64,000 nucleotides of DNA from Candidatus Rokuibacteriota bacterium. GTDB taxonomy: Bacteria; Methylomirabilota; Methylomirabilia; Rokubacteriales; CSP1-6. The DNA is taken from NCBI GenBank assembly GCA_016193045.1, contig JACPSW010000006.1, positions 1,116 through 65,115 of the forward strand, read 5' to 3'. Of this stretch, positions 257 to 15,300 are shown one piece after another. A model generated the notes under the pieces. The model was not told the origin of the DNA. It worked only from the letters and a program-made list of their open reading frames with translations, and made no database searches. A program made the position numbers and the translations under genes. The first letter of the stretch is position 1. The number at the start of each line of letters is the position of its first letter.

Positions 257-2572
257 ATGATCAACGTCAACAAGCTGTTCCGTCGCCTCAGGATCCGGAC
301 GAAGCTCATCATCGCGTTCGTTCTCCTCGGGGTGGTGCCGGTGGCGGTCGCCGGCGGGTACGGAGCCGTCTTCTCCTTCGCGCTCCTGAACCAGACCCTT
401 CTCGATGCGCTCCAAGAGGGTGTGTCCCTGAAAGCGGGGGAAGTCCGGCAGTTCCTCGAAACCGTGCGGGAAGACGTCCTCTTCCTGAGCCGCCTGCCGA
501 CGGCTCGGGCGCTCATCGAGGCGCCGCCGGACCCCCCGCGAGGCGTCGCCGCGCCGGTAGAGCGGGCCTTCCTGGCGTTCTCGCAATCCCGAAAGGCGTA
601 CTATCAGATCCGCCACCTCGACGAGCGGGGCCGCGAGGTTGTCCGGGTGGACTTCGACGGCGAGCGCCACAAGGTCATCCCCCCGTCCGCCCTGCAGGAC
701 AAAAGCGATCGCTACTACTTCCGGGAGGCCAGGGCAGTTCGCCCCGGCGCACTCTACGTTTCCCCCATGGACCTGAACGAGGAGTGGGGGAAGGTCGAGG
801 CTCCCGCGAAGCCCGTGGTGCGATATGCCACGCGGCTCGTCAACTCCCGCGGGGAGCCGCGCGGGGTCCTGGTGGTCAACCTCTACGCGGCGAAGATCCT
901 CGCGCAGGTGGTGAGCCTGGCGCACGAGCGAGGAACGGTCTCGCTGGTGGACTCCCGCGGCACGGTCCTCGCCCGCTCCGGCCGAGCGGCGCCCGAATCG
1001 GGCTCGTTCCTCGCCACCGGAGAGACGCTCCAGCGCGATTTTCCGGACGACATCACGGCGCGGGCGCTCTCGGGGAGGCCGGGCGCGGTGGCCGAGTCGG
1101 GGCTCCGGGGGCGGATTCTCGCGTTCGCCCCGATTCAGCCGGCCCCGGGACGCGAGTCCTGGATCGTGGTCCATGCCTACGGCAAAGGGGAGGTGCTTTC
1201 CTCGATCCGCTCGCTCCAGGTCCTCGTGCTGGGGCTGGGGGCCGGGGTGCTCGTCATCGCCCTGATCGCGGGAGTGGCCGCGGCGCGGCACTTCACGCGC
1301 CCCATCGGTTCGCTGATCCGAGGCGCCGAGGCCGTGGCCGCCGGAGACTTCGACCGCCCTATCCGGGTCGAGACCAACGACGAGCTGGAGGACCTGAGCC
1401 ACCAGTTCAACCGGATGGCCCGCCATCTCAAGGAGCACGAGCAGCAGCTTCTGGACGCGCGGGAGCGGGCGGAGCGAAAGGCGCAAGAGGCCGAGGTCCT
1501 CTACCGGATCGCCACCGAGATCTCCCAGCTCCTCTCGCTGCCCCGCATCCTGCAGCTCGTGGTGGACAAGGCCCGGGAGCTCCTCAAGGGCGACCTGGCC
1601 GTCCTCTGCCTGGACGAAGCGGGGGGCGGGTTCCGAGTGGGAGCCGCGAGCGGACCGTCCGAGACTCTCGCACTCCGGCCCGGCGAGCCGGTGGACGCGA
1701 TCGGGTGCGCGAAGATCGCTTCCGCCGCGGGCCATTGCCCCGTCCTCCACGGCGCCGGGCTCACGACCCACGTGGCGGTCCCCCTCAAGAGTGGCGAGCG
1801 CGTGGTGGGGACCCTCTGTGTGGGATACGGGACCGCCCACCCCGTCGCCCGGGACGAGCTGGACTTTCTCAACGGGCTGGCCACCCAGGCGGCGGTCGCG
1901 ATCGAGAACGCCCGGCTCCATGGGGAAGTGCGGGACCTGGCCGCGCTGGAGGAGCGGGAGCGGATCGGCCAGGACCTGCACGACGGCATCATCCAGTCCA
2001 TCTACGCCGCGGGGCTCGGCCTCGAGGAATGCGTGCGGCTCGCCGAGGAGGAGCCGCAGGAGGTCAAGCCCAAGCTGGAGGCGGCCATCGAGAGCCTGAA
2101 CACCGTCATCCGCGACGTGAGGAACTACGTCGTGGGCCTCCAGCCTGAGGAACTCCAGGAGCGAGGGCTGAGCCGCTCGCTGGCCGATCTCACCCGGGGA
2201 CTGGCCCTCAACGCCCTGCTCCACGCCGAGCTCCAGGTGGAGCCGGGCATCGACGGCACTCTCACGCCGGAGCTGGCCGGCCAGCTCTTCCACATCTGCC
2301 GGGAGGCCCTGACCAACGTCGTCAAGCACGCCCGTGCCTCCCGGGTCGCGCTGAGCGTGGAGCGCCGAAAGGGCAACCTCGTGCTCGCGGTCGAGGACGA
2401 CGGGGTCGGCTTTGAGCCCGACCAGCATGAGAGCGCCGGGCAGGGGCTGCGCAACATGGGGGAGCGGGCGCGCCGTCTGGGGGGCTCCTTCGGCGTGGAG
2501 AGCGCGCCGGGGCGGGGGACCCGGATCACCGTGGAGATTCCGCTGGAGGAGCTCGAGCGAGGGACGGCATGA
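257..2572 (+). CDS. Sensor histidine kinase: TM, periplasmic Cache-like region, TM, HAMP, GAF, HisKA_3 (H-box HDGIIQSIYAAGLGLEE), HATPase_c
   Basis: Translation shows an N-terminal TM helix, a roughly 260-aa extracytoplasmic region, a second TM, a HAMP-like linker and a GAF-like segment. It has the NarX-type H-box and G1/G2 ATPase motifs (GQGLRNMGERARRLGG). ATG at 257 with a hydrophobic N-terminus. Confidence 0.9.
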   Translation: MINVNKLFRRLRIRTKLIIAFVLLGVVPVAVAGGYGAVFSFALLNQTLLDALQEGVSLKAGEVRQFLETVREDVLFLSRLPTARALIEAPPDPPRGVAAPVERAFLAFSQSRKAYYQIRHLDERGREVVRVDFDGERHKVIPPSALQDKSDRYYFREARAVRPGALYVSPMDLNEEWGKVEAPAKPVVRYATRLVNSRGEPRGVLVVNLYAAKILAQVVSLAHERGTVSLVDSRGTVLARSGRAAPESGSFLATGETLQRDFPDDITARALSGRPGAVAESGLRGRILAFAPIQPAPGRESWIVVHAYGKGEVLSSIRSLQVLVLGLGAGVLVIALIAGVAAARHFTRPIGSLIRGAEAVAAGDFDRPIRVETNDELEDLSHQFNRMARHLKEHEQQLLDARERAERKAQEAEVLYRIATEISQLLSLPRILQLVVDKARELLKGDLAVLCLDEAGGGFRVGAASGPSETLALRPGEPVDAIGCAKIASAAGHCPVLHGAGLTTHVAVPLKSGERVVGTLCVGYGTAHPVARDELDFLNGLATQAAVAIENARLHGEVRDLAALEERERIGQDLHDGIIQSIYAAGLGLEECVRLAEEEPQEVKPKLEAAIESLNTVIRDVRNYVVGLQPEELQERGLSRSLADLTRGLALNALLHAELQVEPGIDGTLTPELAGQLFHICREALTNVVKHARASRVALSVERRKGNLVLAVEDDGVGFEPDQHESAGQGLRNMGERARRLGGSFGVESAPGRGTRITVEIPLEELERGTA

Positions 2573-3225
2573 GCGGCCAGAAGATCAGGGTGCTCCTCGT
2601 GGACGACCACGAGGTGGTGCGGGTCGGCCTGCGCTCGCTCGTGGCCAGAGAGCGGGGCATGGAAGTCGTCGGCGAGGCGGCGGCCGCGGCCGAGGCCGTG
2701 GCCGGGGCGAGCCGGCTCCGGCCCGACGTGGTCGTCATGGACGTGAGGCTCCCGGACCAGAGCGGCGTCGAGGCCTGCCGGGAGATCCGGAGCGCCGACC
2801 CGGCGGTCAAGGTCATCATGCTCACGTCCTACGCCGATGAGGAGGCCGTCTTCAATTCCATCCTCGCGGGAGCGTCCGGCTACCTCCTCAAGCAGATCCG
2901 GGGGCAGGAGCTGGTGCGCGCCATCGAAGCCGTCGCGGCCGGACAATCCCTCCTCGACCCGACCGTGACCCAGAAGGTCCTCGAAAAGGTCAAGCGGCTG
3001 GCCTCGGGCGCCCCGCCCGACGAGATCGCCCAGCTCTCGACCCAGGAGCGGAAGGTGCTGGCCCTTGTCGCCGACGGGAAGACCAACAAGGAGATCGCGG
3101 CGACGTTGGGACTCAGCGACAAGACCGTGAAGAACTACCTCTCGCACGTCTTCGAGAAGCTCAACCTCTCCCGCCGCGCGGAGGCAGCCGCTTTCTTCGC
3201 CCGCCGTCGCTCGCCGTCCCCCTGA
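2569..3225 (+). CDS. NarL/FixJ-family response regulator (REC + LuxR-type HTH)
   Basis: RVLLVDDHEVVR receiver N-terminus, phosphoacceptor VVVMDVRLPD and a C-terminal LuxR HTH (TNKEIAATLGLSDKTVKNYLSHVFEKLN). 4-nt overlap with the upstream kinase. Confidence 0.9.
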   Translation: MSGQKIRVLLVDDHEVVRVGLRSLVARERGMEVVGEAAAAAEAVAGASRLRPDVVVMDVRLPDQSGVEACREIRSADPAVKVIMLTSYADEEAVFNSILAGASGYLLKQIRGQELVRAIEAVAAGQSLLDPTVTQKVLEKVKRLASGAPPDEIAQLSTQERKVLALVADGKTNKEIAATLGLSDKTVKNYLSHVFEKLNLSRRAEAAAFFARRRSPSP

Positions 3226-3226
3226 C

Positions 3227-3246
3227 ACCAGGGCCATCCGGCCCTG
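3227..3246 (+). terminator. Hairpin ccagggcc-atcc-ggccctgg downstream of the regulator gene
   Basis: Perfect 8-bp inverted repeat immediately after the stop codon, followed by a weak T-run ttcctct. Confidence 0.35.
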
Positions 3247-3326
3247 GTTCCTCTAGAGACAAAAAACTCCGGCAAGCGCCCCATTCGGCACTTTTCCCGG
3301 GGCCTCCACGGCTTGACACTCGGAGC

Positions 3327-3704
3327 ATGGAGCGGCTCGTCACGGTCGCGGTCGTCGATGGAAACCCGGGCGCGCGCCGGGGCCTGGTCCGGCGGCTCGA
3401 GCAGATGCGGGGGATCTCTGTGGTGGGCCAGGCGGCGGACTTGGACGGCGCCCTCGGGATGGTCAGCGAGCGACGGCCAGAGGTGATCGTGATGGACCTC
3501 CGGCGGATCGCTCCCGATGGGGCGGAGTCCCTGGGCCGGCTGGAGGGCGCCGCTCCGCGCGTGGGGATCGTGATCTTCACCGCGTATGTCACAGAGCAGG
3601 AACGGGCCGACCTGACGCGAGCCGGGGCCCGGGCGATCCTCCTCAAGGAGATCGATTCCGAGGCGCTCGCCCGGGCGATCCGGGCGGTCGCCCGGCCCAC
3701 ATAG
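3327..3704 (+). CDS. Single-domain response regulator (receiver only)
   Basis: 125-aa REC fold with the conserved Asp (VIVMDLRR), Thr (IVIFTAY) and Lys (ILLKEI). 12 nt upstream of the first peroxidase gene. Confidence 0.8.
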   Translation: MERLVTVAVVDGNPGARRGLVRRLEQMRGISVVGQAADLDGALGMVSERRPEVIVMDLRRIAPDGAESLGRLEGAAPRVGIVIFTAYVTEQERADLTRAGARAILLKEIDSEALARAIRAVARPT

Positions 3705-3716
3705 AGGAGCCACGCC

Positions 3717-4802
3717 ATGAAGGGCTTTGGGGCGTTCGTTGGGCTGATCGGCGTCGTGCTCAGCGCGGGGGCCGCGGCGGGCCAGGCCCTCGCTCCCCTC
3801 CCGCCGCTGGAGCCCCCGAAGAAGGAGCAGGTAGAGCTGGGGAAGTCTCTCTTCTTCGACCCGCGCCTCTCCGGCGACGGCGGAGTCTCGTGCGACAGCT
3901 GCCACGACCCCACCACCGGGTGGGGCGACGGCAAGGCGCTCTCGACGGGCTATCCCGGGAGCGAGTACTTCCGGAACGCCCAGACGCTCCTGAACGCGGC
4001 CTACTACAAGCGGAACTACTGGGACGGGCGGATGGCGGGGCCCGACCTCCCCACGCTCGTCCGCGACCACCTGACCGAGGCCCACTTCATGCAGGTGGAC
4101 GGCCGGCTCTTCGTCGAACGCCTCAGGCAGGTCCCCGAGTACGAGCAGATGTTCCAGAAGGCGTTCAATGGGGAGCCCACCTTCGGCCGGACTCTCAACG
4201 GGATCGCCGCCTTCCTCAAGACACTGACTTCCCGCAACGCGCCCATCGACCGGTACCTCAAGGGCGATGCCACAGCGCTTTCGGCCGAGGCGCGGGAAGG
4301 CCTGGCGCTCTTTCGGGGGAAGGCCGGGTGCATCCAGTGCCACGGCGGGGCGCTCCTCACCGACCAGAAGTTCCACGCGCTCGGCGTGCCCCCGAACCAG
4401 GCCGTCTTCGCCGAGCCGCTCCGCCACATCACGTTCCGCCGCTTCTTCCGCACGCTCGGCGCGCCGAACGCGGAGAACTACCGCGAGGACCCGGGGCTCT
4501 ACGGCGTAACGAAAGACAGGGCGGACTGGGGGAAGTTCAGGACGGCGAGCCTGAGGGAAGTCAGCCGGACCGCGCCCTACATGCACAACGGCAGCCTCGC
4601 CACCCTCGAGGAGGTCGTGGCCTTCTACGACCGGGGCGGGGGCCAGCACGGGAACAAGAGTCCGCTGCTCCGTCCGCTGAACCTCACGGAGTCGGAGAAG
4701 CGGGTGCTGGTGGAGTTCTTGAAGAGTCTCTCGGGCGACCCGGTGGTGATCGAGCGGCCGGAGCTGCCCGACTACAAGCCACGCAAGCTCGGCCAGAACT
4801 GA
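3717..4802 (+). CDS. Di-heme cytochrome c peroxidase (CCP/MauG family), secreted
   Basis: Signal peptide and two CxxCH motifs (CDSCHDPTTGWGDG and CIQCHGG). ATG 3717 preceded by gaggag. Confidence 0.9.
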   Translation: MKGFGAFVGLIGVVLSAGAAAGQALAPLPPLEPPKKEQVELGKSLFFDPRLSGDGGVSCDSCHDPTTGWGDGKALSTGYPGSEYFRNAQTLLNAAYYKRNYWDGRMAGPDLPTLVRDHLTEAHFMQVDGRLFVERLRQVPEYEQMFQKAFNGEPTFGRTLNGIAAFLKTLTSRNAPIDRYLKGDATALSAEAREGLALFRGKAGCIQCHGGALLTDQKFHALGVPPNQAVFAEPLRHITFRRFFRTLGAPNAENYREDPGLYGVTKDRADWGKFRTASLREVSRTAPYMHNGSLATLEEVVAFYDRGGGQHGNKSPLLRPLNLTESEKRVLVEFLKSLSGDPVVIERPELPDYKPRKLGQN

Positions 4803-4813
4803 GGAGACGAGCC

Positions 4814-5959
4814 ATGCGAACCTCTCGATCTGCCGTCCTCGCGCTGGCGGCGCTCCTCCTCGGCGGCGCGCTCTGGGCCGGCGGAGCCCTGGGCCAGGCC
4901 CCGCGCGTCCCCGCCCTCGGCCCGCTGCCGGCCGTGCCCAGCCCGCCCGACAACCCGACGACCGCGGCCAAGGTCGAACTGGGAAAGCTCCTCTTCTGGG
5001 ACACACGGCTCTCCGGCGACGTCTCGACCTCCTGCGCGACCTGCCACGATCCGAAGCTGGACTGGGGGGACGGGGGCGCCCTCTCCCGCGGCTATCCCGG
5101 CACCGAGCACTGGCGGAACTCCCAGACGGTCCTGAACGCGGCCTACTTCTCGAAGCTCTTCTGGGGCGGCGAAGTCACGAGCCTCGAGTCTCAGGCCAGC
5201 GCTGCGGCTACCGGCAACGTGGCGGGGAACGGCGATCCCATCATGATGGAGGAGCGCCTGCGCCAGGTCCCGGAGTACGTCAGGCGCTTCAAGGAGGTCT
5301 TCGGCGTCGAGCGGCCCACGATCGGGATAGCCTGGATGGCCATCGCCGCCTTCGAGCGGACCCTGGTGTCGAAGGCCGAGCAGGTCCCCTTCGACCGCTA
5401 CGCCCGGGGCGACCAGTCGGCCCTCGCGGCCGGGGCCAGGCGGGGGCTCGCCCTCTTCCAGGGAAAGGCCGGGTGCGTCCAGTGCCACAACGGGCCGCTC
5501 CTGTCCGACGAGAACTACCACAACCTCGGCGTCCCGAGAAACCCGGCCTTCGAGAACACCCCGCTGCGCCAGATCACGCTGCGCTACCAGCACGTGATCC
5601 GCGGCGTCCCCGAGAAGCTCTACCGGAGCGCCGACCGCGACCTGGGGCTCTACTACACGACCAAGCAGGAGGCGGACAAGGGGAAGTTCAGGACCCCGAG
5701 CCTCCGCGAGCTGAAGTACACAGCCCCCTACATGCACAGTGGCGTCTTCGGCGCCCTGGAGGAGGTCGTCGAGTTCTACAACCGCGGCGGGGACGAGAAT
5801 CTCAACAAGAGCCCGCTCATGCGCCCCCTCGGGCTGTCGGAGCAGGAGAAAAAGGACCTTCTCGCGTTTCTCCTGTCGCTCTCGAGCGACCAGCCGCTGA
5901 TCGTCGAGCCGCCCGACCTTCCGGACTACGCACCCATGAAAGTGGAGGCCAGACCATGA
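4814..5959 (+). CDS. Second di-heme cytochrome c peroxidase (CCP/MauG family), secreted paralog
   Basis: Internal ATG at 4814 (MRTSRSAVLALAALLLGG signal peptide) preceded by gaggag. Motifs CATCHDPKLDWGDGG and CVQCHNGP. The longer ORF 3890..5959 is an upstream read-through artefact. Confidence 0.9.
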   Translation: MRTSRSAVLALAALLLGGALWAGGALGQAPRVPALGPLPAVPSPPDNPTTAAKVELGKLLFWDTRLSGDVSTSCATCHDPKLDWGDGGALSRGYPGTEHWRNSQTVLNAAYFSKLFWGGEVTSLESQASAAATGNVAGNGDPIMMEERLRQVPEYVRRFKEVFGVERPTIGIAWMAIAAFERTLVSKAEQVPFDRYARGDQSALAAGARRGLALFQGKAGCVQCHNGPLLSDENYHNLGVPRNPAFENTPLRQITLRYQHVIRGVPEKLYRSADRDLGLYYTTKQEADKGKFRTPSLRELKYTAPYMHSGVFGALEEVVEFYNRGGDENLNKSPLMRPLGLSEQEKKDLLAFLLSLSSDQPLIVEPPDLPDYAPMKVEARP

Positions 5960-6498
5960 CCGGACCAGACGGCGAACGACTCTGTCTTTCCCGGCGGGCG
6001 TTCCTCCTCTCAGGAGGAACAGCGGTGACCATCCTGGCCCTCGCGGGGCTCTCCCCCGCCTTCGGCCAGGGGGCCGCGCTCCAGGTCGCCTCCTACCCGC
6101 GCCGGAGGATCGGCCGGGTGAGCCGGCTCACGGTGGACCAGCCCGTGAGCTTTCAATACCCGTGGAAGGACTTCAACTCCACCAACATGCTGGTCAAGCT
6201 CGGCGTGCCGGCCGGCGGCGGCGTGAGCCCCGAGCAGGACGTCGTGGCCTTCTCGACCCTCTGCACCCACATGGGCGGCCCTCTGACCGGCCAGTACCGG
6301 GGCCAGTGGAAGGTCCTCGGCCCCTGCCCCTTCCACCTCACCACCTTCGACCTGACCAAGCACGGGATGGTTGTGGCGGGTCAGGCCACCGAGAGCCTGC
6401 CGCAGATCGTCCTGGAGGCGAAGGGCGACGAGATCTGGGCCACGGGCGTCATGGGTCTCATCTACGGCTATCACTCGAACCTCGCCCGACGGGCCTGA
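5956..6498 (+). CDS. TAT-exported Rieske [2Fe-2S] small subunit of an AioB/IdrB-type molybdoenzyme
   Basis: Twin-arginine motif SRRAFLLSG. Rieske boxes CTHMGGP and CPFHLTTF. ATG overlaps the stop of the preceding peroxidase gene (ATGA), so the genes are translationally coupled. Confidence 0.85.
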   Translation: MTGPDGERLCLSRRAFLLSGGTAVTILALAGLSPAFGQGAALQVASYPRRRIGRVSRLTVDQPVSFQYPWKDFNSTNMLVKLGVPAGGGVSPEQDVVAFSTLCTHMGGPLTGQYRGQWKVLGPCPFHLTTFDLTKHGMVVAGQATESLPQIVLEAKGDEIWATGVMGLIYGYHSNLARRA

Positions 6499-6511
6499 GG
6501 AGGAGTACCTG

Positions 6512-9181
6512 ATGGCAAAGGCGGTCTCCCACTTCTATCTTCCCGAGGACAGGGTCCCACTCCCCCCGCCGGACGCCAAGGTCTCGACCACGGCGTGCGA
6601 CTACTGCATCGTGGCGTGCGGCTACATGGTCTACACCTGGCCGCTGGGCAAAGAGGGCGGGCCCAAGGCGTCCCAGAACGCCCTCAAGGTAAACTTCCCC
6701 GCCGCGATCAACAGCGGGAAGTGGATCAGCCCCAACATGCACAACATCGTCCACGTCGAGGGCACCCCCCATCACCTCGTCGTGGTCCCTGACGGCGACG
6801 CCAGGGTCGTCAACGTCGGTGGCAACCACTCCATCCGCGGCGGAGTGCTCGCCCAGAAGTGCTTCAACCCCAACAAGCCCTCCCAGGAGCGGCTGCTTCA
6901 CCCGATGATGCGCGTCCGGGGCACGCTCCAGGCGATCTCCTGGGACGCGGCCTTCGAGGTCCTGGCGGGGGTCTCCCGCCACGTGCTCGACCGCTACGGC
7001 GAGAGCGCCTGGGCGATGAAGACGTACTCCTACCAGTACTTCGAGAACACCTACGCGATCTCCAAGCTGGCCTTTTGGGCCATCCAGACGCCCGCCTACG
7101 CCCCTCACGACAAGCCCGGCCCCGGGCCCGACACCCCCGGGCTGGACTGGGCCGGAATCGACGCCTTCAGCGCCTCCTACGAGGACTGGGGGGAGGCGGA
7201 CGTGATCTACTTCGCCGGGGTGGACCCCTGGGAGACCAAGTCGGTCCTCTTCACGACCTGGATCATGAACGGCAAGAACCCGGACAAGAAGCTCATCTTC
7301 GCCCTGCCCCGGAAAACGACGGGGGTGGCGTACGGCGAGGGCAAGGGCGGGCTTTTCCTGCCCGTGATCCCGGGGACGGATGTCGTCCTCCAGCTCGCGA
7401 TCAGCCGGGTGATTCTTGAAAATGGGTGGGAGGACAAGGCGTTCATCGAGAAGTGGGTGTCGAACGCCTGGGAGATCGACACCGGCATGGGGCGCGGCCC
7501 GCGCAACACGCCGTCAGAGTGGTTCACCACGTGGGGCCGCTACGGCGTCGGCTTCGCCGACTACAAGAAGTGGATCCTCGGCTACAAGTACGCCGAGCTC
7601 CCGACCGCCGAGCGGATCACCGGTGTGCCGGCGGACTCCATCAAGCGAGCGGCCGAGTTGCTGGCCAAGCCCCGCCCCGACGGCTCCCGCCCCAAGACCT
7701 CGTTCATGCTGGAGAAGGGGATCTACTGGTGCAACAACCTCGGCAACACGACCTCCTTCGCCGCCCTCGGCCTGCTCTGCGGGGCGGGGAACCGTCCCGG
7801 CCGCGTTATCGCGCGGGGCGGCGGCCACCAGCGCGGCTGGATGGGCGGCAGCGGCTACCCGCGGGGGATCTCCCCAGAGAAGTTCCCGGGGCGGCGGAAG
7901 AAGGAGATCGACCTGGACCGCTGGGTGGTGGATGGCCACGTGCGCTTCGCCTGGGTCATCGGCACGACCTGGCTCCAGGCCATGGCGGCCTCCCAGGAGC
8001 TGATGGACGTCTTCGAGAAGCTCACCCGGGGAAACCCGAACCAGATCAGAAGCTTCGACCCCAAATCCGCCATCGAGACGCTCAAGAGGCGCGCGGACTC
8101 GGGCGGCCTGGTCGTGGTGGACCAGGACATCTACCCCGTGGACCCCATCGGCACCCAGTTCGCCGACCTCGTCCTGCCCGCCGCGACCTGGGGTGAGGAG
8201 GACTTCACCCGCTGCAACGGCGAGCGCCGCCTGCGGCTCTACTCGAAGTTCTACGACGCGCCCGGGGAGGCCAGGCCCGACTGGTGGATCATCGCCGGCT
8301 TCGCCCGGAAGATGGGGTTCAAGGGGTTCGACTGGAAGGACTCCAACGAGGTCTTCGAGGAGTCGGCCCGCTTCGGCCGCGGCGGCGTCCTCAACTATCA
8401 CCCCCTCGTCGTGAAGGCCAAGCGCGAGGGCAAGCGCGCCCACGATCTCCTGCGCCAGTACGGGACCGAGGGGATCCAGACGCCGATCCGGATGGTCGGC
8501 GGAGCCCTCGTGGGGACCAAGCGCCTGCACGATTCGACGCTCCAGCTCGGGCCCCCGGAGGGCGTCACGGTCCATCCCAAGTGGCTCACCTCGTTCGACA
8601 CCCACACGGGCAAGGCCATCCTCCTCCGGAGCTACTGGGAGGACTTCCAGGACTTCCACGAGGCGGTGAGCCCCGTGGGAGACGAGCTCTGGGTGACCAA
8701 CGGCCGGATCAACGAGCTCTGGCAGTCGAACTTCGACGACCTCCGCCGCCCCTACATCATGCAGCGCTGGCCCTATCAATTTCTAGAAATCCACCCGGAG
8801 GACGCCAAGGCCCGCGGGATCGAGTCCGGAGACTTGGTGGCCATCGAGAACGACAACGTCCTGGTTCAGACCGGGGGGTATCTCGGCGTGGACGACAACG
8901 AGCTCTCCTTCGCCGAGCTCCGGAAGGCCGGCCACATCCAGGCCACCACCGGGAGCTTCAACGCGGTGGCGATGGTGACCGACGCGGTCCGGAAGGGCGT
9001 GACGTTCGCCTACTTCGGCTTCTCCGGCAACCCCGCGAACTCCGTAGTCCCGCGGGTCCCCGATCCCGTGACCAACCGCTACCGCTTCAAGCTCGGCAAG
9101 GGCCGCATCACCAAGATCGGCGAGTCGCCCTACAAGCGCTCCTTCACCTCCATGAGCTTCGCGCCGCGGCCGATCGCGTAG
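6512..9181 (+). CDS. Molybdopterin (bis-MGD) oxidoreductase large subunit, arsenite-oxidase (AioA) / iodate-reductase (IdrA) clade
   Basis: N-terminal TTACDYCIVACGYMVYTW matches the AioA-type C-X2-C-X3-C [3Fe-4S] motif (cf. CHFCIVGCGYHVY). 889 aa. RBS gaggagg 9 nt upstream of ATG 6512. No signal peptide, consistent with hitchhiking on the Rieske TAT signal. Confidence 0.88.
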   Translation: MAKAVSHFYLPEDRVPLPPPDAKVSTTACDYCIVACGYMVYTWPLGKEGGPKASQNALKVNFPAAINSGKWISPNMHNIVHVEGTPHHLVVVPDGDARVVNVGGNHSIRGGVLAQKCFNPNKPSQERLLHPMMRVRGTLQAISWDAAFEVLAGVSRHVLDRYGESAWAMKTYSYQYFENTYAISKLAFWAIQTPAYAPHDKPGPGPDTPGLDWAGIDAFSASYEDWGEADVIYFAGVDPWETKSVLFTTWIMNGKNPDKKLIFALPRKTTGVAYGEGKGGLFLPVIPGTDVVLQLAISRVILENGWEDKAFIEKWVSNAWEIDTGMGRGPRNTPSEWFTTWGRYGVGFADYKKWILGYKYAELPTAERITGVPADSIKRAAELLAKPRPDGSRPKTSFMLEKGIYWCNNLGNTTSFAALGLLCGAGNRPGRVIARGGGHQRGWMGGSGYPRGISPEKFPGRRKKEIDLDRWVVDGHVRFAWVIGTTWLQAMAASQELMDVFEKLTRGNPNQIRSFDPKSAIETLKRRADSGGLVVVDQDIYPVDPIGTQFADLVLPAATWGEEDFTRCNGERRLRLYSKFYDAPGEARPDWWIIAGFARKMGFKGFDWKDSNEVFEESARFGRGGVLNYHPLVVKAKREGKRAHDLLRQYGTEGIQTPIRMVGGALVGTKRLHDSTLQLGPPEGVTVHPKWLTSFDTHTGKAILLRSYWEDFQDFHEAVSPVGDELWVTNGRINELWQSNFDDLRRPYIMQRWPYQFLEIHPEDAKARGIESGDLVAIENDNVLVQTGGYLGVDDNELSFAELRKAGHIQATTGSFNAVAMVTDAVRKGVTFAYFGFSGNPANSVVPRVPDPVTNRYRFKLGKGRITKIGESPYKRSFTSMSFAPRPIA

Positions 9182-10191
9182 CGAGGGGGGTGTGCTTTGC
9201 AGCGCGAAAATATCTCATCGGGTGTGAGCAATGAAATCGCGGTCTTCGGGCCCAGCACGTCGATACGTAAGATTCTGTCCGGATTGCGCAAATCGACCTT
9301 TCTGTCGATGCTCGCGGCGAGATAGTCAATGATCTCCTTCGTATGATATTGGCGCCAGCGCCGTTTTTCCACCTCCATGGCCCAGGTGTCATCCTGATCG
9401 ATCAGATCCCTTATGTGCGTCTCGATCACCGACTTCATCGCCTGAAGCTCCGTTTCGCACCAGAAATCGACAGGGACCCATTTCACCGCGAATCGGAAGA
9501 TTGGCCCCCCTTCGAATAATTCCCTGCATCGCCTGATGACGTCTCGGTTATTCAAAGTGGTGCGGACGATGGCGATGCCTGGGACATTCGTCTTTTCGAT
9601 CTGGGGATGTGGATCCCCAAACTGCCGGAGAATGCGCGTTATTTCATGGCGTGCGGGATGGAACTGCCTCCACGGGTAGGAAACGAGGAGTTCATTCGTG
9701 CCCATGGTTGGCATGAGCGCATCCGAGTCCAGGCGTTGGGCTCTTTCTGAACCGCCGCAGATTCCTTTCAAGGGCACGTACCGCACCTCACAAATGATCT
9801 GTCTGACGGTGCCAGTCTCGGTCTTTTCAGCGAGAACGAGATTCTGAACATCGTCTTCAATCATCGGGACGATGAGCCGTCCACCCGTTCGCAACTGATC
9901 GATCAGCGGCGGGGGTATCTTTCGGCAGGCCGCCGTCACGGCGATTCTGTCATAGGGGCTCATCTCCGGACACCCCAGCCCCCCATCCCCCTGGATCAGG
10001 ACGATGTCGCGGTAGCCGGCCCGTTCGAGATTTTCTTTGCCGAACGCAAAAGTCAATGGATCGATTTCGACGGACACGACGAGACCCTCGGGGCCGACGA
10101 CTTCTCGCGCCAGGGCGGTCCCATAGCCCGAGCCCAGGCCGATCTCGAGAAAGCGATGGCCTTGATCCAAGCCGAGCGGCTCGTAAAACAA
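9130..10191 (-). CDS. Protein-L-isoaspartate O-methyltransferase-like domain fused to an unrecognised roughly 200-aa C-terminal domain; N-terminus truncated, possible pseudogene
   Basis: PIMT motifs (FLEIGLGSGYGTA ... VRYVPLKG) begin at residue 14. The only start is TTG at 10191. An in-frame TGA lies 12 codons upstream, and PIMT-like sequence (EATISCPHSY, cf. GQTISQPY) continues beyond it. Lower GC than the core. Convergent 52-nt overlap with the molybdoenzyme gene. Confidence 0.55.
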   Translation of the reverse strand: MFYEPLGLDQGHRFLEIGLGSGYGTALAREVVGPEGLVVSVEIDPLTFAFGKENLERAGYRDIVLIQGDGGLGCPEMSPYDRIAVTAACRKIPPPLIDQLRTGGRLIVPMIEDDVQNLVLAEKTETGTVRQIICEVRYVPLKGICGGSERAQRLDSDALMPTMGTNELLVSYPWRQFHPARHEITRILRQFGDPHPQIEKTNVPGIAIVRTTLNNRDVIRRCRELFEGGPIFRFAVKWVPVDFWCETELQAMKSVIETHIRDLIDQDDTWAMEVEKRRWRQYHTKEIIDYLAASIDRKVDLRNPDRILRIDVLGPKTAISLLTPDEIFSRCKAHPPRYAIGRGAKLMEVKERL

Positions 10192-10887
10192 GGGATAACT
10201 GTGGGGACAGGAGATGGTCGCCTCTCACTGGACTTTCGCGGCTCGCTCCTTTTCCAATTCCTCCCGGCTCTTGGTGGGCGCCTTCGGCGGTGGGATGATC
10301 CAGCCGTGCATTCTTGCCTCGCTCAAGCGCTGGACAGGCGGGTGGGGGGTCCCAATAAGGAGCGGGAAACGTGAGGATCGGCCCAAAAAAAAAATGCCCT
10401 GGAAGCTATCTGAAGCGCTTCCTCCTTACCTTCCTTTTGCCCTTCGAGATTAGTGTCAACCTCGACTGACCGTCGGCTGGTTCGGTTTCCGCAGCTCCGG
10501 AACTTCAACTTCCAGGGTACCCACAATCTAAACCCCGCCTCACCCGCTGTCAATGAGCCGTTCACTCTAATCAAAATGCATGGGAAGAACAAGACTATTC
10601 ACGCCGACTGCGGCGAGCACCTGCCGGGAAGTCTGTGGACGAGCGGCCGGGCCCGCCCCATGCGAGCCGATCTCGAAGCCTAGGGTGGGGGCAGACGATG
10701 TCCCAGTCGCCCCGTCAGATGGGGCGGTGCCACCCCATCAACTCCTTGAAGACGGCTATTGAACTCTATGGTCCGTAACGAAATCAAGGTATTAGAGGGA
10801 CGCCCGCTCTGGCACTGCGGTTGCTCAGTCAACTGGGTTGGCAAGTCCGAAGCAAACAAGACAGGCTCGCCAAGTGGGGGTGACTCG

Positions 10888-11316
10888 ATGAATATCGCAA
10901 GCATCCTGGCGACTAAGGGCGGCCAAGTCATGACGATCCGTCCCGAGCAAACAGTCAGGGAGGCCGTCGCGTCACTCGTCAAACATAATATTGGTGCGCT
11001 CATCGTCGTGAACGATGTCGACAAACCCATCGGGATTATCACCGAGCGCCACATTGTGCGTGAAGTGGCGAGAAACGAGCAGATCTTCACGCAAACCATC
11101 CGTGAGGTTATGACACAGGACTTGCTCACCGGAACGCCGCAGGATGATCTGATGTCGGTCGCCCATGTCATGACCGAACGGCGAATTCGCCATTTGCCGG
11201 TCATGGACAAAGGGAAGCTCATCGGCATCGTGTCCATTGGGGACGTGGTCAAGGCCCAGCGGGACACGTACCGGGGTGAGGTCGAGACCTTGCAGACGCA
11301 GATTCTCGGGAGTTGA
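10888..11316 (+). CDS. CBS-domain pair protein
   Basis: Two CBS motifs (IGALIVVNDVDKPIGIITERHIVREV; IRHLPVMDKGKLIGIVSIGDVV). Internal ATG 10888 follows ggggg. Confidence 0.8.
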   Translation: MNIASILATKGGQVMTIRPEQTVREAVASLVKHNIGALIVVNDVDKPIGIITERHIVREVARNEQIFTQTIREVMTQDLLTGTPQDDLMSVAHVMTERRIRHLPVMDKGKLIGIVSIGDVVKAQRDTYRGEVETLQTQILGS

Positions 11317-11493
11317 CGCGTCCGCGGCAAACGCTCTGAGCCCGCTGGTTCTCCTCCGAGGGAGCTGGATCATGACGAAGACGGACCTGGTGGGCCGAAC
11401 TGGCGAAGGTATCCAATCTGACGAAGAGGGAAAGCGTGTCCAGTGGACGATGACCCGATACGAGTGAGAATGAGTCCCCGAAGGATTCGGACA

Positions 11494-12105
11494 ATGGCAA
11501 GGAGGGATCCACCTGCCGGACTCGGACACAAGTGCCTCATGTTGCTCCCTATACTCCTGGCCCTGTGGGGCCTGGCCGGCTGCGCCACCGCCTATGTCCG
11601 GGGCGAGACCGCCCTTCGTCAAGAGCGCTACGACGAGGCGGCGGGCTATTTCATCGAAGCCCTCGCCACGGACCCCGGACGGATCGACGCTCGAACCGGG
11701 CTCGGCATCACCCGGTACAAGCAGGGGAAGCTCGACGAAGCGGAAGACGCCCTCCGACAGGTCATCACCCAAGTGCCCGGCCGCTCGGAGGCACGGCTCT
11801 ACCTGGGCCTCACATATCTGCAAAAGGGGGAGAACAGCTCGGCCGAGGAGCAATTGACTGCGGTTCTGGCTCTCAAACCCCACCGCCGTATCGCGGCCCA
11901 GATCGAACGGGCCCTCAGGCTGATTCGATCCGGCCCCCTCTCGGACGACACAAGAATGTTCGTCGCGGCGAGTCTCGAAGACGAGGCGGAGTGGGAATGT
12001 GAGGTGCGTGACGCGGAGCGCCAGCGATGCGTTTATGTGGAGCCGGTGTGGCCTGTGTATTGGCACTCCTACTGGTACCCGTATTGGTACCGTTATCGCT
12101 TCTGA
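11494..12105 (+). CDS. TPR-repeat lipoprotein with aromatic-rich C-terminal tail
   Basis: Lipobox LLALWGLAGC. TPR-like repeats. Unusual tail VWPVYWHSYWYPYWYRYRF. Start placed at M18 of the ORF. Confidence 0.55.
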   Translation: MARRDPPAGLGHKCLMLLPILLALWGLAGCATAYVRGETALRQERYDEAAGYFIEALATDPGRIDARTGLGITRYKQGKLDEAEDALRQVITQVPGRSEARLYLGLTYLQKGENSSAEEQLTAVLALKPHRRIAAQIERALRLIRSGPLSDDTRMFVAASLEDEAEWECEVRDAERQRCVYVEPVWPVYWHSYWYPYWYRYRF

Positions 12106-12275
12106 GCTGGAACTGGAGGGTGCGAGGTGTCAATCTTCGGACGAACGATTCGGAGAACTCGAGCGGAGGCGGGATCCATTTGCTGCCGGACCGCCACAAG
12201 CGGCGCCGCCTGATCACTCAGCTCCCCGGCACCCTCAAGGCGAGGCTCCTGGACGAGCCGCCTGGGGCACTCCTC

Positions 12276-12458
12276 ATGGATCTGGACGCATTCCTGCAGC
12301 ATGTCGCAGCCGGGCTCGGCACGCATACGTCGGGAGGCAAACGCGCCGTGCGCATCGTGTACCGCGCGCTCCGCGAAGCGGTGTCCCCAGGCGAGCTGGC
12401 CAAAGCCGAGGCACACCTCCCAAAGGAGGTCGCCGGCTTTCTCGAGCGTGCCGCATGA
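12276..12458 (+). CDS. Short DUF2267-like protein (N-terminal half only)
   Basis: MDLDAFLQHVAAGLG...AVRIVYRALREAVSPGELAKAEAHLPKEVAGFLE resembles the first half of DUF2267. The ORF ends after about 60 aa. Confidence 0.3.
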   Translation: MDLDAFLQHVAAGLGTHTSGGKRAVRIVYRALREAVSPGELAKAEAHLPKEVAGFLERAA

Positions 12459-12504
12459 GCCTCGACCATGACTGACTTCTCGCCGGCCGCCTGATCCCTC
12501 CAGT

Positions 12505-12545
12505 GGCAAAGTTGAGCGCGAGGAGGGCAAAGTTTAGGGCAAAGT
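12505..12545 (+). promoter_or_regulatory. Three direct repeats of GGCAAAGT upstream of the tRNA-Asp promoter
   Basis: Copies at 12505-12512, 12526-12533 and 12538-12545, just upstream of the -35 element. UP/Fis-like arrangement typical of stable-RNA promoters. Confidence 0.4.
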
Positions 12546-12559
12546 GGGGGGGTTCGCCA

Positions 12560-12588
12560 TTGACTCGGCCCGCGTAACCATGTAAATT
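12560..12588 (+). promoter_or_regulatory. Sigma70-type promoter of the tRNA-Asp gene
   Basis: TTGACT (12560-12565), 17-nt spacer, TAAATT (12583-12588). The tRNA starts 8 nt downstream. Confidence 0.6.
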
Positions 12589-12596
12589 CTCAGCGC

Positions 12597-12641
12597 GGGG
12601 TCGTGGTGCAGCCTGGTTAGCACACTGGACTGTCAATCCGA
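12597..12641 (+). tRNA. tRNA-Asp(GTC) 5' fragment (acceptor 5' strand, D-arm, anticodon arm; no T-arm or 3' acceptor)
   Basis: GGGGTCG-TG-GTGC-AGCCTGGTTA-GCAC-A-CTGGA-CTGTCAA-TCCGA with canonical U8, A14, G18G19, A21, U33 and R37. Sequence after position 43 is not tRNA-like. Confidence 0.7.
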
Positions 12642-13331
12642 TCCGCAGTATGAGCCCCGTTGGTAAGTGCGTAACTTGCCAGCGGGTTTTTCTTTCTCTC
12701 GTTGGCTAGGGTCGGGTAGTTTCGGGTGGTTTCTAGGTGCTGACGGGCATAATGGCGGGCATAACGCCAGGGGGCCGAGCCCCGCACGCAGGTCGAGCCC
12801 CGGCACGATTGGAGCCCGTAGGTCGGGGGGGAGGAGGACAAGGACGCAAGCGCTCAACCAGGTCCCTTCGATTGCTCGCCTCAGTAACCGATGGCATTGG
12901 GAACAGAAGGGGCCTTTGATGAACTCATCGAGACTGCCGCGAGAGGGGTTCTCGACGGTACGGAAGGCAGATAGGAAGTGTGGCATGATCTCCCAATCGA
13001 GATCGAAGTGAGAAAAGGGGTAGAAGTCGGGCGGCTTCGCCGTTCGGGTGGGGTCAGGTGACGGTGGTGGAGTAGACGTGGCGACTGGGCGACGAGTCAA
13101 CTGATGTCGGTGGATGATCAGGGCGAGGACCAAGACAAGGGCCACCGAAAGCAGCAGCCACGCTGGTGTTGGAAGAGGGGTCCTCAGGTACGGACCGATT
13201 ACGCGGACGTAGGCGACCACAACTGCGAACAGTATAGCCAGTAACGCAAGAATCCCGGTGGCGATGAGATTCGCTGTCACCTGATTGAAGATGTTCCTGA
13301 GCCAATTGCGGATGCTTCGCCATGACCACAT
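12633..13331 (-). CDS. Hypothetical membrane protein (two N-terminal TM helices, Cys-containing C-terminal region)
   Basis: 232-aa ORF. Its C-terminal 40-50 codons run through repeat copy 1 and the tRNA fragment, so the native C-terminus is probably replaced or non-coding. Confidence 0.4.
   Translation of the reverse strand: MWSWRSIRNWLRNIFNQVTANLIATGILALLAILFAVVVAYVRVIGPYLRTPLPTPAWLLLSVALVLVLALIIHRHQLTRRPVATSTPPPSPDPTRTAKPPDFYPFSHFDLDWEIMPHFLSAFRTVENPSRGSLDEFIKGPFCSQCHRLLRRAIEGTWLSACVLVLLPPDLRAPIVPGLDLRAGLGPLALCPPLCPSAPRNHPKLPDPSQREKEKPAGKLRTYQRGSYCGSD
12662..12691 (+). terminator. Hairpin (ggtaag..cttgcc) plus T-run directly after the truncated tRNA-Asp
   Basis: Stem-loop followed by agcgggttttt. 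The T-run is the first base of repeat copy 1. Confidence 0.5.
12681..12768 (+). repeat. Copy 1 of a roughly 90-bp repeat family (core TTTTTCTTTCTCTCGTTGGCTAGG ... CGGGCATAATGGCGGGCATAACGCC)
   Basis: 21/23 identity in the core and about 65% over the next 55 nt to the copies at 31088..31172 (+) and 39130..39225 (-). All three begin at a terminator T-run. Confidence 0.75.
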
Positions 13332-13408
13332 CGGTCCTCATTATCGAGCCAAAGCCGCTGCCGATCCAAGAACGAAACCAGCGGGCAGAATTCGGGTCCC
13401 GTGCACTC

Positions 13409-13780
13409 TCAAGCCTGAGTCCTTCGAGCGTACTCAGCGTTAAGTAGCCGTTCGAGCAGGTGTCGTACCGCACGATAGCCAATCTCATTAGAGAGCACGT
13501 CAACCGGGCGATCATTGTAGAGGTCTTCGTGAGGCTCGCCGAAAAAGCGCGCCATTTCCTTAGGAGTGAGCCGCTCGCCTACTGCGGCGGCGAGTTCCGA
13601 GAGCCGCGCGAGCGTTCGCGCTTCGCGAGACGAGGGATGCCCACGGCCGCGTTCCCACCTGGAGACACTCACGAGACTCACATTCAACCATTGCGCAAGC
13701 TGCTGCTGGCTGAGTTCAAGTTGCCGTCTGAGTTGCACAAGCTCCTTTGTGGAATGCGCGTTTCGGTCCAAGCTGAACAC
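13409..13780 (-). CDS. Xre-family HTH protein with C-terminal toxin-binding (Xre/MbcA/ParS antitoxin-like) domain
   Basis: HTH LSQQQLAQWLNVSLVSVSRWERG. C-terminal ...RPVDVLSNEIGYRAVRHLLERLL resembles DUF2384-type antitoxin domains. GTG or TTG start at about 13780/13771, abutting the IS21 end. The upstream part of the ORF is non-coding. Confidence 0.55.
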   Translation of the reverse strand: MFSLDRNAHSTKELVQLRRQLELSQQQLAQWLNVSLVSVSRWERGRGHPSSREARTLARLSELAAAVGERLTPKEMARFFGEPHEDLYNDRPVDVLSNEIGYRAVRHLLERLLNAEYARRTQA

Positions 13781-13860
13781 CAGGATCGGACCAACGTGAA
13801 CACCCAGATCGGCATGGTGAACACGTAGATCGGTGATCGTGAACAGGCGACCCTTTCCCC
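13775..13860 (+). repeat. IS21-family left terminal region with multiple direct GTGAACAC...GATCGG repeats
   Basis: ctGAACACcaGGATCGGaccaacGTGAACACccaGATCGGcatgGTGAACACgtaGATCGGtgatcGTGAACAgg, iterated subterminal repeats as in IS21 IstA binding sites. Immediately upstream of istA. Confidence 0.5.
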
Positions 13861-13937
13861 CCAGGGGGGCGGGCGCCTGAGGGCAGCGACGCTGGATGGT
13901 CCAGCGCGCCGTCCGCCCCGAGCCAGAAGGGGGCGCG

Positions 13938-15084: not shown

Positions 15085-15107
15085 TTGAAAACTCCCCACC
15101 CCCGGGT

Positions 15108-15300
15108 TCACTCCGTGGCCTCGGCGGGGCGGACGAGGCCGGCCTTGAGCTTGTCCTTGAGCCGGTAGGAATTGCCCCGGATGTTGAGGGTGATGGCATG
15201 GTGGAGGATCCGGTCCAGGATCGCCGTGGCGATGACGCGGTCCCCGAAGACCTCCCCCCAGCTGCCGAAGCTCTGGTTGCTCGTGAGGATCATGGGACCC
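15108..15300 (-). pseudogene. istB: IS21-family IstB C-terminal remnant
   Basis: Only the last roughly 60 aa are IstB-like: GPMILTSNQSFGSWGEVFGDRVIATAILDRILHHAITLNIRGNSYRLKDKLKAG. The upstream part of the ORF is noise. Confidence 0.7.

Follow-up and report, generated by a model that had tools for sequence, protein, structure and literature searches.

Gene content and organisation of the locus

The window analysed here is a 64,000-nucleotide stretch of a Candidatus Rokuibacteriota chromosome (contig JACPSW010000006.1), near the start of which lie seven genes, all on the plus strand and all strongly coding by their third-position GC of 0.89-0.93 (Table 1). The gene set described by the first-pass annotation, i.e. 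a histidine kinase, a NarL-type response regulator, a receiver-only protein (REC), two di-haem peroxidases (CCP1 and CCP2), a TAT-exported Rieske protein and an 889-aa molybdenum subunit, was recovered in full. The kinase and response regulator genes overlap by 4 bp (ATGA), as do the CCP2 and Rieske genes, and gaps of 12 bp, 11 bp and 13 bp separate REC from CCP1, CCP1 from CCP2 and the Rieske gene from the large subunit gene, respectively, a spacing that fits tight coupling of the genes. The 101-bp spacer between the response regulator and REC genes contains a hairpin that lacks a U tract and whose function is putative (folding of 3216-3330, -44.5 kcal/mol, z = -2.76). A scan for consensus promoters and terminators returned nothing exceeding the shuffled background.

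Table 1. Positions and diagnostic features of the genes and the hairpin at the locus
Feature	Position	Strand	Domains and motifs
Sensor histidine kinase, 771 aa	257-2572	+	TM, periplasmic PF21623/dCache-type sensor, TM, HAMP, GAF, HisKA_3, HATPase_c (Pfam)
NarL/LuxR-family response regulator	2569-3225	+	REC + GerE HTH (Pfam, NCBIfam)
Hairpin, 9-bp stem	3227-3248	+	Directly 3' of the response regulator stop codon, within the 101-bp spacer
Receiver-only response regulator (REC), 125 aa	3327-3704	+	Pfam Response_reg, 1.7e-16
CCP1, di-haem cytochrome c peroxidase	3717-4802	+	CCP_MauG, 3.7e-41; CDSCH + CIQCH; Sec-type signal
CCP2, di-haem cytochrome c peroxidase	4814-5959	+	CCP_MauG, 4.1e-41; CATCH + CVQCH; stop overlaps idrB start
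IdrB, TAT-exported Rieske [2Fe-2S] small subunit, 180 aa	5956-6498	+	Twin-arginine SRRAFL; C-x-H-x18-C-x2-H
IdrA, molybdopterin large subunit, 889 aa	6512-9181	+	Pfam Rieske_3, Molybdopterin, Molydop_binding

DNA similarity to relatives starts between 3748 and 3814 and, on subject contigs that run far enough, stops at about 9185, and because it is bounded in this way the last four genes behave like a cassette. Its recent horizontal acquisition was considered and rejected, as the third-position GC of both the idr and the two-component genes is that of the host. A stretch of low third-position GC with a transposase fragment begins only downstream, at about 9130.

The cassette resembles the iodate reductase island idrABP1P2 of Pseudomonas sp. 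SCT, reportedly described by Yamazaki et al. in 2020, in its four genes, their order and their orientation, with 52-60% identity in all four proteins; the [3Fe-4S] and Rieske motifs and the TAT/Sec export signals are also held in common, although the host belongs to another phylum. Other named idr systems are those of Denitromonas iodatirespirans IR-12, Azoarcus sp. DN11 and Aromatoleum toluclasticum TC-10. Synteny was compared across 80 retrieved idr-like loci, one per species; species-level idr loci number 485 in total. The first-pass annotation had regarded the gene order as unusual, but CCP, CCP, idrB, idrA on one strand is the order of SCT itself (L094) and of nearly all loci that extend far enough, in several phyla; the exceptions are two Pirellulaceae loci (L054 and L059), in which the CCP pair lies downstream, while six Dehalococcoidia/Chloroflexi loci have a single CCP and no Rieske match passing the filter. 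The name 'idrABP1P2' does not give the transcription order (PMC10989891), and by position, following the order of Zhu et al. 2022, CCP1 is idrP2 and CCP2 is idrP1.

A widened distribution of Idr-like enzymes, also proposed at first, had been anticipated by published idr clusters from Rokubacteria, NC10 and groundwater (PMC8692401, PMC10989891, PMC8801600, PMC10149662). Deep IdrA branches already include Rokubacteria, Lindowbacteria and NC10 (PMC8692401), the idr cluster of 'Ca. Methylomirabilis iodofontis' has been published (Zhu et al. 2022, PMC10989891) and cultured iodate reducers from freshwater and groundwater exist (PMC8801600, PMC10149662). The gene cluster is a standard idr cluster of the kind already reported from Rokubacteria and NC10, only the adjoining regulator genes are unusual, and the published list of cassette-bearing genomes gains one Rokubacteria chromosome.

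The surroundings of the cassette differ from those in SCT, in which a c-type cytochrome and moaA/moaD/moeA lie downstream: tblastn across the whole window detected no cytochrome c or moaA homologues and the genes downstream of idr are unrelated. A sigma-54 two-component system, a c551-like cytochrome and moaA are frequent but not universal companions of idr, and since several accepted idr genomes also lack them (PMC8801600), the missing accessory genes do not exclude membership of the Idr group. A secreted protein of ~245 aa, encoded upstream in 38 other loci, is likewise missing beside the window cluster; searches of PDB and NCBIfam gave no significant match to it.

Regulatory genes upstream of the cassette

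The first-pass annotation had termed the two-component system NarXL-type, a description that holds for the transmitter and output domains and fails for the sensor. As in NarX/NarL, a membrane kinase with HAMP and HisKA_3 (phospho-acceptor) domains is paired with a REC-GerE regulator, whereas the window sensor, whose periplasmic domain spans about residues 40-320, is of the dCache/PF21623 type with an extra GAF domain and that of NarX is a four-helix P-box module. Every NCBIfam equivalog match to the kinase fell far under its cut-off (NarX, 95 bits vs 578), and the NarL model gave the response regulator 159 bits against a cut-off of 250.

The HisKA_3/NarL pair is the lineage-specific part of the locus, common to one other Rokubacteria genome (GWA2_73_35, L006), where it is co-oriented with the idr genes and likewise precedes them. 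The closest homologue of the kinase is that of L006 (56% identity), and the response regulators of the two loci are 76% identical. The other idr loci from Methylomirabilota, NC10 and Rokubacteria MAGs (Reyes-Umana et al. 2021, PMC8692401; PMC10989891) share the phylum and the four-gene cassette but not the pair, which is absent at the three other informative Methylomirabilota loci (L044, L004 and L002); their upstream genes vary, e.g. L004 has an ECF sigma factor there and L044, the closest relative, an acyl-CoA dehydrogenase. In the receiver-only protein the phospho-acceptor Asp is conserved, together with the Thr and the Lys, but one of the two acidic-pocket Asp residues is Gly. No counterpart adjoining idr was found by tblastn in any other retrieved locus, the only matches being the full-length response regulator of L006 and a distant one in L062, and in L006 the receiver-only slot is occupied by a different gene.

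The proposal that this regulatory arrangement was undescribed is correct only in part. A two-component system upstream of idr, with a proposed role in iodate sensing, has been published, but in a sigma-54, AtoS/AtoC-like form (PMC10149662, PMC8801600), and neither the HisKA_3/NarL form nor the receiver-only gene was found in the publications consulted. SCT also has a two-component system directly upstream of idr with a PF21623/dCache-HAMP kinase sensor; there a HisKA kinase is combined with a sigma-54 NtrC-type regulator, whereas the window combines a GAF-HisKA_3 kinase with a NarL/LuxR regulator and has the extra receiver-only gene before the first CCP. The idr cassette is evidently wired differently by lineage, via a sigma-54 or NarL-type two-component system, an ECF sigma factor or a PAS-LuxR regulator, and this variety bears on the possible control of groundwater iodine cycling.

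Residues 13-393 of the kinase are 36% identical to the SCT kinase upstream of idr, and the window sensor is 34-38% identical to the idr-upstream kinases of SCT, Azonexus, Thiothrix, a Myxococcales MAG and an Azospirillaceae MAG. An idr-dedicated 'iodate sensor' domain shared by these kinases was rejected, because another sensor, P0397, scores higher against that of the window (215 bits vs 152) and the idr-linked sensors are not monophyletic by neighbour joining (NJ), which leaves relatedness at the level of the family only. The gene for P0397 adjoins multihaem cytochrome genes; its contig ends within the sensor gene, and the 8 kb upstream carries no idr. A word-index database search with the sensor domain gave 17 matches, mostly fragments, and missed the SCT kinase, so it carries little information on distribution.

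Adjacency in two genomes is what suggests a link between the two-component system and idr. It is possible, if on balance doubtful, that the three regulatory genes (kinase, NarL regulator and receiver-only) adjoin idr with no functional link to it, in which case the pair may control other genes and idr would be regulated from elsewhere. Two-component systems abound in such genomes, with at least four further kinase/regulator genes in the window itself, among them a second HisKA_3/NarL pair at 20750-23198; moreover, the system is missing at three of the five informative Methylomirabilota idr loci (an acyl-CoA dehydrogenase standing upstream in L044), a hairpin lies between the response regulator and REC genes and the sensor shows no specific kinship with the idr-linked sensor of SCT, its domain being equally similar to one that does not adjoin idr. 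Set against this, L006 has the same pair, likewise oriented and ahead of its idr genes, at identities that denote no recent copy, sensors of the same Pfam family adjoin idr in Myxococcales, Azospirillaceae, Azonexus, Thiothrix and SCT, the REC gene is only a few base pairs from CCP1 and the two-component genes agree with idr and the host in third-position GC.

Relationship of the cassette proteins to iodate reductase

The large subunit is Idr-like rather than a canonical arsenite oxidase, as its comparison with validated members of both groups indicates. It is 58% identical to SCT IdrA (UniProt A0A391NTR7; 73% positives over 888 aa), against ~31% to AioA of NT-26, Thermus and Hydrogenophaga, and it is 81-95% identical to its counterparts in seven MAG loci (L001-L006 and L044), including Rokubacteria GWA2_70_23 and NC10 RIFCSPLOWO2_12_FULL_66_18. 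The [3Fe-4S] motif, defined as C-x2-C-x3-C-x70-S (PMC10149662), is present as C29-x2-C32-x3-C36 with S107, all invariant in the alignment. In an NJ tree with 100 bootstraps the window sequence did not fall inside AioA, but in a clade with SCT IdrA (96% support), and the AioA core was separate (100%). A direct union of the Methylomirabilota/Nitrospinota subclade with the proteobacterial IdrA group received only 38% support, compared with 96% for the wider clade. Furthermore, at 24 of the 25 alignment columns that discriminate AioA from Idr, the window protein has the Idr state.

The substrate pocket of AioA, reportedly formed by His195, Glu203, Arg419 and His423 (A. faecalis numbering; Ellis et al. 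2001), is represented in the window by H199, D207, R435 and H439, and the same H/D/R/H set is found in SCT IdrA. The column equivalent to Glu203 holds Glu in all seven AioA sequences and Asp in 78 of the 82 Idr-clade sequences. As three of the four AioA pocket residues (H, R, H) are kept, the pocket alone does not exclude arsenite.

The small subunit carries a Rieske signature that reads CTH-x18-CPFH and is 58% identical to SCT IdrB, compared with 40% to AioB. Each of the two peroxidases, which are 52% identical to one another, is the reciprocal best match of the SCT peroxidase in the same position: CCP1 matches the first SCT CCP with 52% identity and 375 bits (269 bits for the second), and CCP2 the second with 60% identity and 425 bits (288 bits for the other). 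Grouping with MauG-type maturases, raised at first as a possibility, can be set aside on these matches and on the low MauG scores. Among PDB entries, bacterial cytochrome c peroxidases gave 143-156 bits and MauG 52-65 bits, and both window proteins fall below the cut-offs of the MauG model (230-232 bits vs 443.85) and the MbnH model (212-230 bits vs 362.85), on which the SCT Idr peroxidases behave alike.

Proposed function, substrate and alternatives

We consider it likely that the four genes idrP2-idrP1-idrB-idrA form the core of an iodate-reduction island in a Methylomirabilota ('Rokubacteria') chromosome, working by the mechanism outlined here. By homology, the twin-arginine signal of IdrB would carry the folded IdrAB complex to the periplasm, where electrons are predicted to pass from a soluble periplasmic carrier to the Rieske [2Fe-2S] cluster, then to the [3Fe-4S] cluster of IdrA and on to the molybdenum cofactor. 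Following published models, the molybdenum site would reduce iodate to hypoiodous acid, with H2O2 formed alongside in one model. The peroxide or reactive by-product would be cleared by the two di-haem peroxidases, both exported by the Sec route, and HIO would then be converted to iodide. From their adjacency, the kinase and NarL-type regulator probably turn on the REC-idr operon upon a periplasmic signal, and the receiver-only protein, apparently co-transcribed with idr, may modulate phosphate flow, e.g. as a phosphate sink.

Iodate as the substrate of the window enzyme is suggested by its resemblance to characterised iodate reductases. Knockout of idrA and molybdate dependence have been reported (PMC8692401), as have Idr activity and iodate induction in SCT, Azoarcus DN11 and Roseovarius (PMC10149662, PMC11445184), and molybdenum-dependent, iodate-inducible activity is known only from Proteobacteria, namely SCT, IR-12, DN11, TC-10 and Roseovarius (PMC8692401, PMC10149662, PMC11445184). 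Whether the deep non-proteobacterial branch truly reduces iodate is a question already raised in the literature. At 58% identity to SCT IdrA, the substrate of the Methylomirabilota/Nitrospinota subclade could differ, and Idr-type machinery with a non-iodate substrate (bromate, chlorate or selenate), or with a role in low-oxygen detoxification rather than respiration, is an unlikely alternative. The subclade stands apart from all cultured iodate reducers, with the weakly supported sister node described above, its members are mostly groundwater and soil MAGs from settings where iodate is scarce, the regulators are unlike the sigma-54 system linked to iodate induction and the accessory genes differ. 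However, the pocket is that of SCT, the clade-specific columns are held in common at all but one position and the entire four-gene cassette is conserved. Iodate is also respired by freshwater and aquifer idr bacteria (PMC8801600, PMC10149662), and 0.1 uM iodate suffices for induction in Roseovarius (PMC11445184). A more specific form of this alternative, in which the Methylomirabilota/Nitrospinota branch has another substrate or role and the dCache-GAF-HisKA_3 kinase, NarL regulator and receiver-only protein are its dedicated sensing circuit, is slightly less probable still; if true, it would mean that uncultured phyla widespread in groundwater and soil possess an oxyanion metabolism of a new kind.

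Iodate reduction by an Idr-type enzyme must finally be weighed against automatic annotation, which labels the window protein 'arsenate reductase (azurin) large subunit', while NCBI and JGI call its homologues arsenite oxidase. The window subunits exceed the curated cut-offs of TIGR02693 and TIGR02694, the best PDB matches are AioA and the pocket retains His, Arg and His. The AioBA systems of Pseudorhizobium banfieldiae NT-26, Alcaligenes faecalis and Thermus thermophilus HB8 are also similar in layout, with a TAT Rieske subunit followed by a [3Fe-4S]/Mo subunit in small-then-large gene order. Validated SCT IdrA, however, has the same annotation, is likewise above the cut-off and scores nearly the same on TIGR02693 (422.9 bits vs 436.6 for the window), far from NT-26 AioA (1,499.5) and Thermus AioA (1,467.7), i.e. 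~1,480 for true AioA; TIGR02694 gives 124.8 bits for window IdrB, 114.4 for SCT IdrB and 231.7 for NT-26 AioB. Beyond the low identity to AioA and the Idr state at 24 of 25 columns, the change of Glu203 to Asp is accompanied by 24 further fixed differences. Synteny with the CCP pair extends to essentially every relative, whereas no peroxidases occur in the aio loci examined (NT-26, Thermus, Hydrogenophaga and Cytobacillus), which have AioXSR/sigma-54 or ArsR regulators; among the window ORFs scanned with Pfam there are no aioX/S/R or ars genes. Periplasmic As(III) oxidation by an AioBA enzyme, with the peroxidases as unrelated neighbours, is thus very improbable. The NCBI arsenite-oxidase models mislabel the entire Idr clade, the validated SCT enzyme included.

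Relationship of the large subunit and the peroxidases

Used as a database query, the large subunit drew over 1,000 relatives, and those nearest to it (81-90% identity) belong to Rokubacteria, NC10 and Methylomirabilota MAGs. With one genome per GTDB species as the search set, relatives were located on 485 genome stretches, and a groundwater 'Rokuibacteriota' MAG ranked first (95%). Cluster look-up led to the iodate reductase IdrA of Pseudomonas sp. SCT (UniProt A0A391NTR7, WP_125025141.1), with 58% identity and 73% positives over 888 residues. Identities in tblastn searches of annotated plasmids were two-peaked: three plasmid-borne homologues, from Azonexus, Thiothrix and Vibrio, reach 49-59%, and every genuine arsenite oxidase (among them those of NT-26, Thermus, Ralstonia and Burkholderia) lies at 28-32%. 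The Idr-like identity proposed in the first-pass annotation was borne out when 102 large subunits were placed in a neighbour-joining tree (100 bootstraps), where the window protein falls within a Methylomirabilota subclade (77% support) adjoining a Nitrospinota-like group (86%); both lie in a 96% clade with SCT IdrA, Azonexus, Vibrio and the loci with near-full-length matches, and the AioA core forms a group of its own (100%). Support is low (38%) at the node that would unite the window subclade directly with proteobacterial IdrA. AioA and the Idr clade have different fixed residues at 25 alignment columns, and in 24 of these the window agrees with the Idr clade. Substrate-pocket residues, also suggested as a discriminator, differ at one position: of the four classic AioA residues (His, Glu, Arg and His), the Glu is Asp in the window, SCT IdrA and 78/82 Idr-clade sequences, but His, Arg and His are common to both. 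The PDB holds no Idr structure, and the best matches there are AioA (~275 bits).

Judged by sequence scores, the 'arsenite oxidase' label on the window protein is model over-reach. The curated cut-offs of the NCBI arsenite-oxidase models (TIGR02693, 359 bits; TIGR02694, 96 bits) admit the Idr clade in its entirety, the experimentally validated SCT proteins among them, and because of this iodate reductases carry the public name 'arsenate reductase (azurin)'. Against TIGR02693 the window large subunit scores 436.6 bits and SCT IdrA 422.9, compared with 1,499.5 for NT-26 AioA and 1,467.7 for Thermus AioA; against the small-subunit model TIGR02694 the window scores 124.8 and SCT IdrB 114.4, compared with 231.7 for true AioB. 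No IdrA-specific model was returned by the NCBIfam release searched. Many proteins of 1,000-2,100 aa (e.g. P0163, P0172, P0177, P0194 and P0201 among the database matches) aligned with the large subunit over residues ~20-445 only (33-37% identity) and look like long fusions bearing an AioA/IdrA-like N-terminal half.

The two peroxidases are 52% identical to each other. In the SCT locus, the best match of CCP1 is the first peroxidase (52%, 375 bits, versus 269 to the second) and that of CCP2 is the second (60%, 425 bits, versus 288); therefore both paralogues are old and positionally conserved. A MauG-type grouping, which would have spoken against an Idr module, was not seen: bacterial cytochrome c peroxidase structures score 143-156 bits and the di-haem enzyme 6E1C 132-145, compared with 52-65 for MauG structures, and neither these proteins nor the SCT peroxidases reach the MauG and MbnH equivalog cut-offs. 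By homology, IdrAB would be exported via TAT on the IdrB signal and the peroxidases via Sec, with electrons passing from the Rieske centre through [3Fe-4S] to molybdenum. By analogy with published models (PMC8692401, PMC10989891, PMC10746228), iodate would be reduced to HIO, with or without H2O2, any peroxide would be cleared by IdrP1 and IdrP2, and HIO would go on to iodide.

Gene order and extent of the cassette

All seven genes of the first-pass annotation were recovered at the positions it gave by translation and Pfam/NCBIfam scans, with third-position GC (0.89-0.93 in 7/7) similar to that of the remaining chromosome. Their junctions comprise two 4-bp ATGA overlaps, three gaps of 11-13 bp and a single large gap, the 101 bp that separate RR from REC. 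In this gap a perfect hairpin (9-bp stem, 3227-3248; ACCAGGGCC-AUCC-GGCCCUGGU) begins one base past the RR stop codon and lacks a U tract; the 115-nt spacer region is more stably folded than shuffles (z = -2.76). The hairpin could divide a kinase-regulator transcript from a REC-idr transcript.

Coordinates of genes in the window and of a protein encoded at other idr loci
Feature	Location	Strand	Description
HK	257-2572	+	membrane kinase, 771 aa; periplasmic PF21623/dCache-type sensor, HAMP, GAF, HisKA_3, HATPase_c
RR	2569-3225	+	REC-GerE regulator
REC-only	3327-3704	+	receiver domain, 125 aa
CCP1	3717-4802	+	di-haem peroxidase, CCP_MauG family, two CxxCH motifs
CCP2	4814-5959	+	di-haem peroxidase, CCP_MauG family, two CxxCH motifs
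Rieske subunit (IdrB)	5956-6498	+	180 aa; SRRAFL twin-arginine signal; C-x-H-x18-C-x2-H
Large subunit (IdrA)	6512-9181	+	889 aa; Rieske_3/Molybdopterin/Molydop_binding; C29-x2-C32-x3-C36, S107
Mu-type transposase fragment	14200-15084		within low-GC3 stretch
Second kinase/regulator pair	20750-23198		GAF-GAF-HisKA_3 kinase, NarL-type regulator
Secreted ~245-aa protein	L008:5824-6564; L069:6295-7023; L006:~6499-7218		also at 35 other loci

Peroxidases first, then small and large subunits, had been taken as a departure from described idr loci, a view that does not stand. The SCT contig (GCA_003864275.1, BDJA01000015.1) encodes on one strand a kinase (dCache/PF21623-HAMP-HisKA), a sigma-54 regulator, CCP, CCP, Rieske, IdrA, cytochrome c, moaA, moaD, a MoCF gene and moeA, so this is the type organism's order; Zhu et al. 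give idrP2, P1, B, A as 'the same as in SCT and IR-12' (PMC10989891). When window proteins were compared with 80 species loci by tblastn, nearly every sufficiently long locus shared order and strand. This holds for Beta- and Alphaproteobacteria, Planctomycetes (the cultured Stieleria marina among them), most Dehalococcoidia, Nitrospinota, Myxococcales and other groups. Two Pirellulaceae loci (L054, L059) depart from it, their CCP pair following the Mo subunit on its downstream side, and in six Dehalococcoidia/Chloroflexi loci just one CCP and no Rieske match passed the filter used. DNA similarity to relatives starts at 3748-3814 and ends at ~9185 where the subject contig reaches that far, and therefore the four genes move or persist as a cassette.

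Directly upstream of the first peroxidase gene, and co-directional with it, 38 of ~90 idr loci encode a secreted ~245-aa protein, among them Nitrospinota-like MAGs, Planctomycetes (with Stieleria marina), Myxococcales and Alpha- and Betaproteobacteria; neither the window nor the SCT-type loci encode it. Pfam finds only a weak C-terminal CarboxypepD_reg/fn3 domain. Conserved His residues are present, as is an 'ECDVHNWM' (C-x2-H-x2-M) motif reminiscent of an amicyanin-type copper site. The gene may thus far have gone unrecognised as a fifth member of the idr set, and its product may carry electrons.

Regulation and prior distribution

The proposed extension of Idr distribution had been anticipated: deep IdrA branches include Rokubacteria, Lindowbacteria and NC10 (PMC8692401, whose named MAGs show 63-89% identity to the window), an idr cluster has been published for Methylomirabilis (PMC10989891), and iodate reducers have been cultured from freshwater and aquifer (PMC8801600, PMC10149662). 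The regulatory arrangement was also called undescribed, but a sigma-54 regulator and kinase are published upstream of idr in Azoarcus DN11 (PMC10149662), and sigma-54 systems occupy this position in SCT, Azonexus and Thiothrix; idr regulation is not discussed in PMC8692401. What is new is small: the two-component system is of the NarL rather than the sigma-54 type and a receiver-only gene is added, as seen in one or two genomes.

The HisKA_3/NarL pair was found upstream of idr in just one other locus, L006 of Rokubacteria GWA2_73_35 (kinase 56%, regulator 76% identity). In the closest relative (L044) that position is taken by genes for an acyl-CoA dehydrogenase and a cytochrome oxidase, in L004 by an ECF sigma factor and in one Dehalococcoidia locus by a PAS-LuxR regulator. 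By tblastn the receiver-only gene has no counterpart in other loci, matching just the full-length RR of L006 and a distant RR of L062; at its slot L006 encodes a ~240-aa secreted protein. In the receiver the phospho-acceptor Asp is retained, as are the Thr and the Lys, with Gly at one acidic-pocket position. Adjacency makes control of idr by the kinase/NarL-type system fairly likely.

Over its N-terminal 380 residues the window kinase shares 36% identity with that of SCT, and sensors of this family adjoin idr in eight retrieved loci. A dedicated idr sensor was rejected, as a sensor beside multihaem cytochromes outscores that of SCT against the window sensor (215 versus 152 bits) and idr-linked sensors are not monophyletic; no idr lies on the 8 kb upstream of the former, whose contig ends within the sensor gene. 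In a metagenomic SCT-type island (L085:4269-6965), a DDE transposase (4620-5744, opposite strand) splits the sigma-54 regulator gene into two ORFs, and the idr regulator of that genome appears to be inactivated.

Chromosomal surroundings

No molybdenum-cofactor gene adjoins the cluster, and homologues of the SCT-island cytochrome c and moaA were not found within the window. Directly downstream of idrA, third-position GC drops to 0.63-0.73 (versus 0.89-0.95) over ~14 kb (~9130-23200), a stretch with a convergent PCMT methyltransferase, a metallo-beta-lactamase-fold gene, the Mu-type transposase fragment, the second kinase/regulator pair and several ORFs without a Pfam match. The stretch probably represents an insertion of foreign or mobile DNA beside the cassette. 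The remainder of the window is ordinary chromosome, with F-type ATP synthase, hisD, ABC transporters and many signalling genes.
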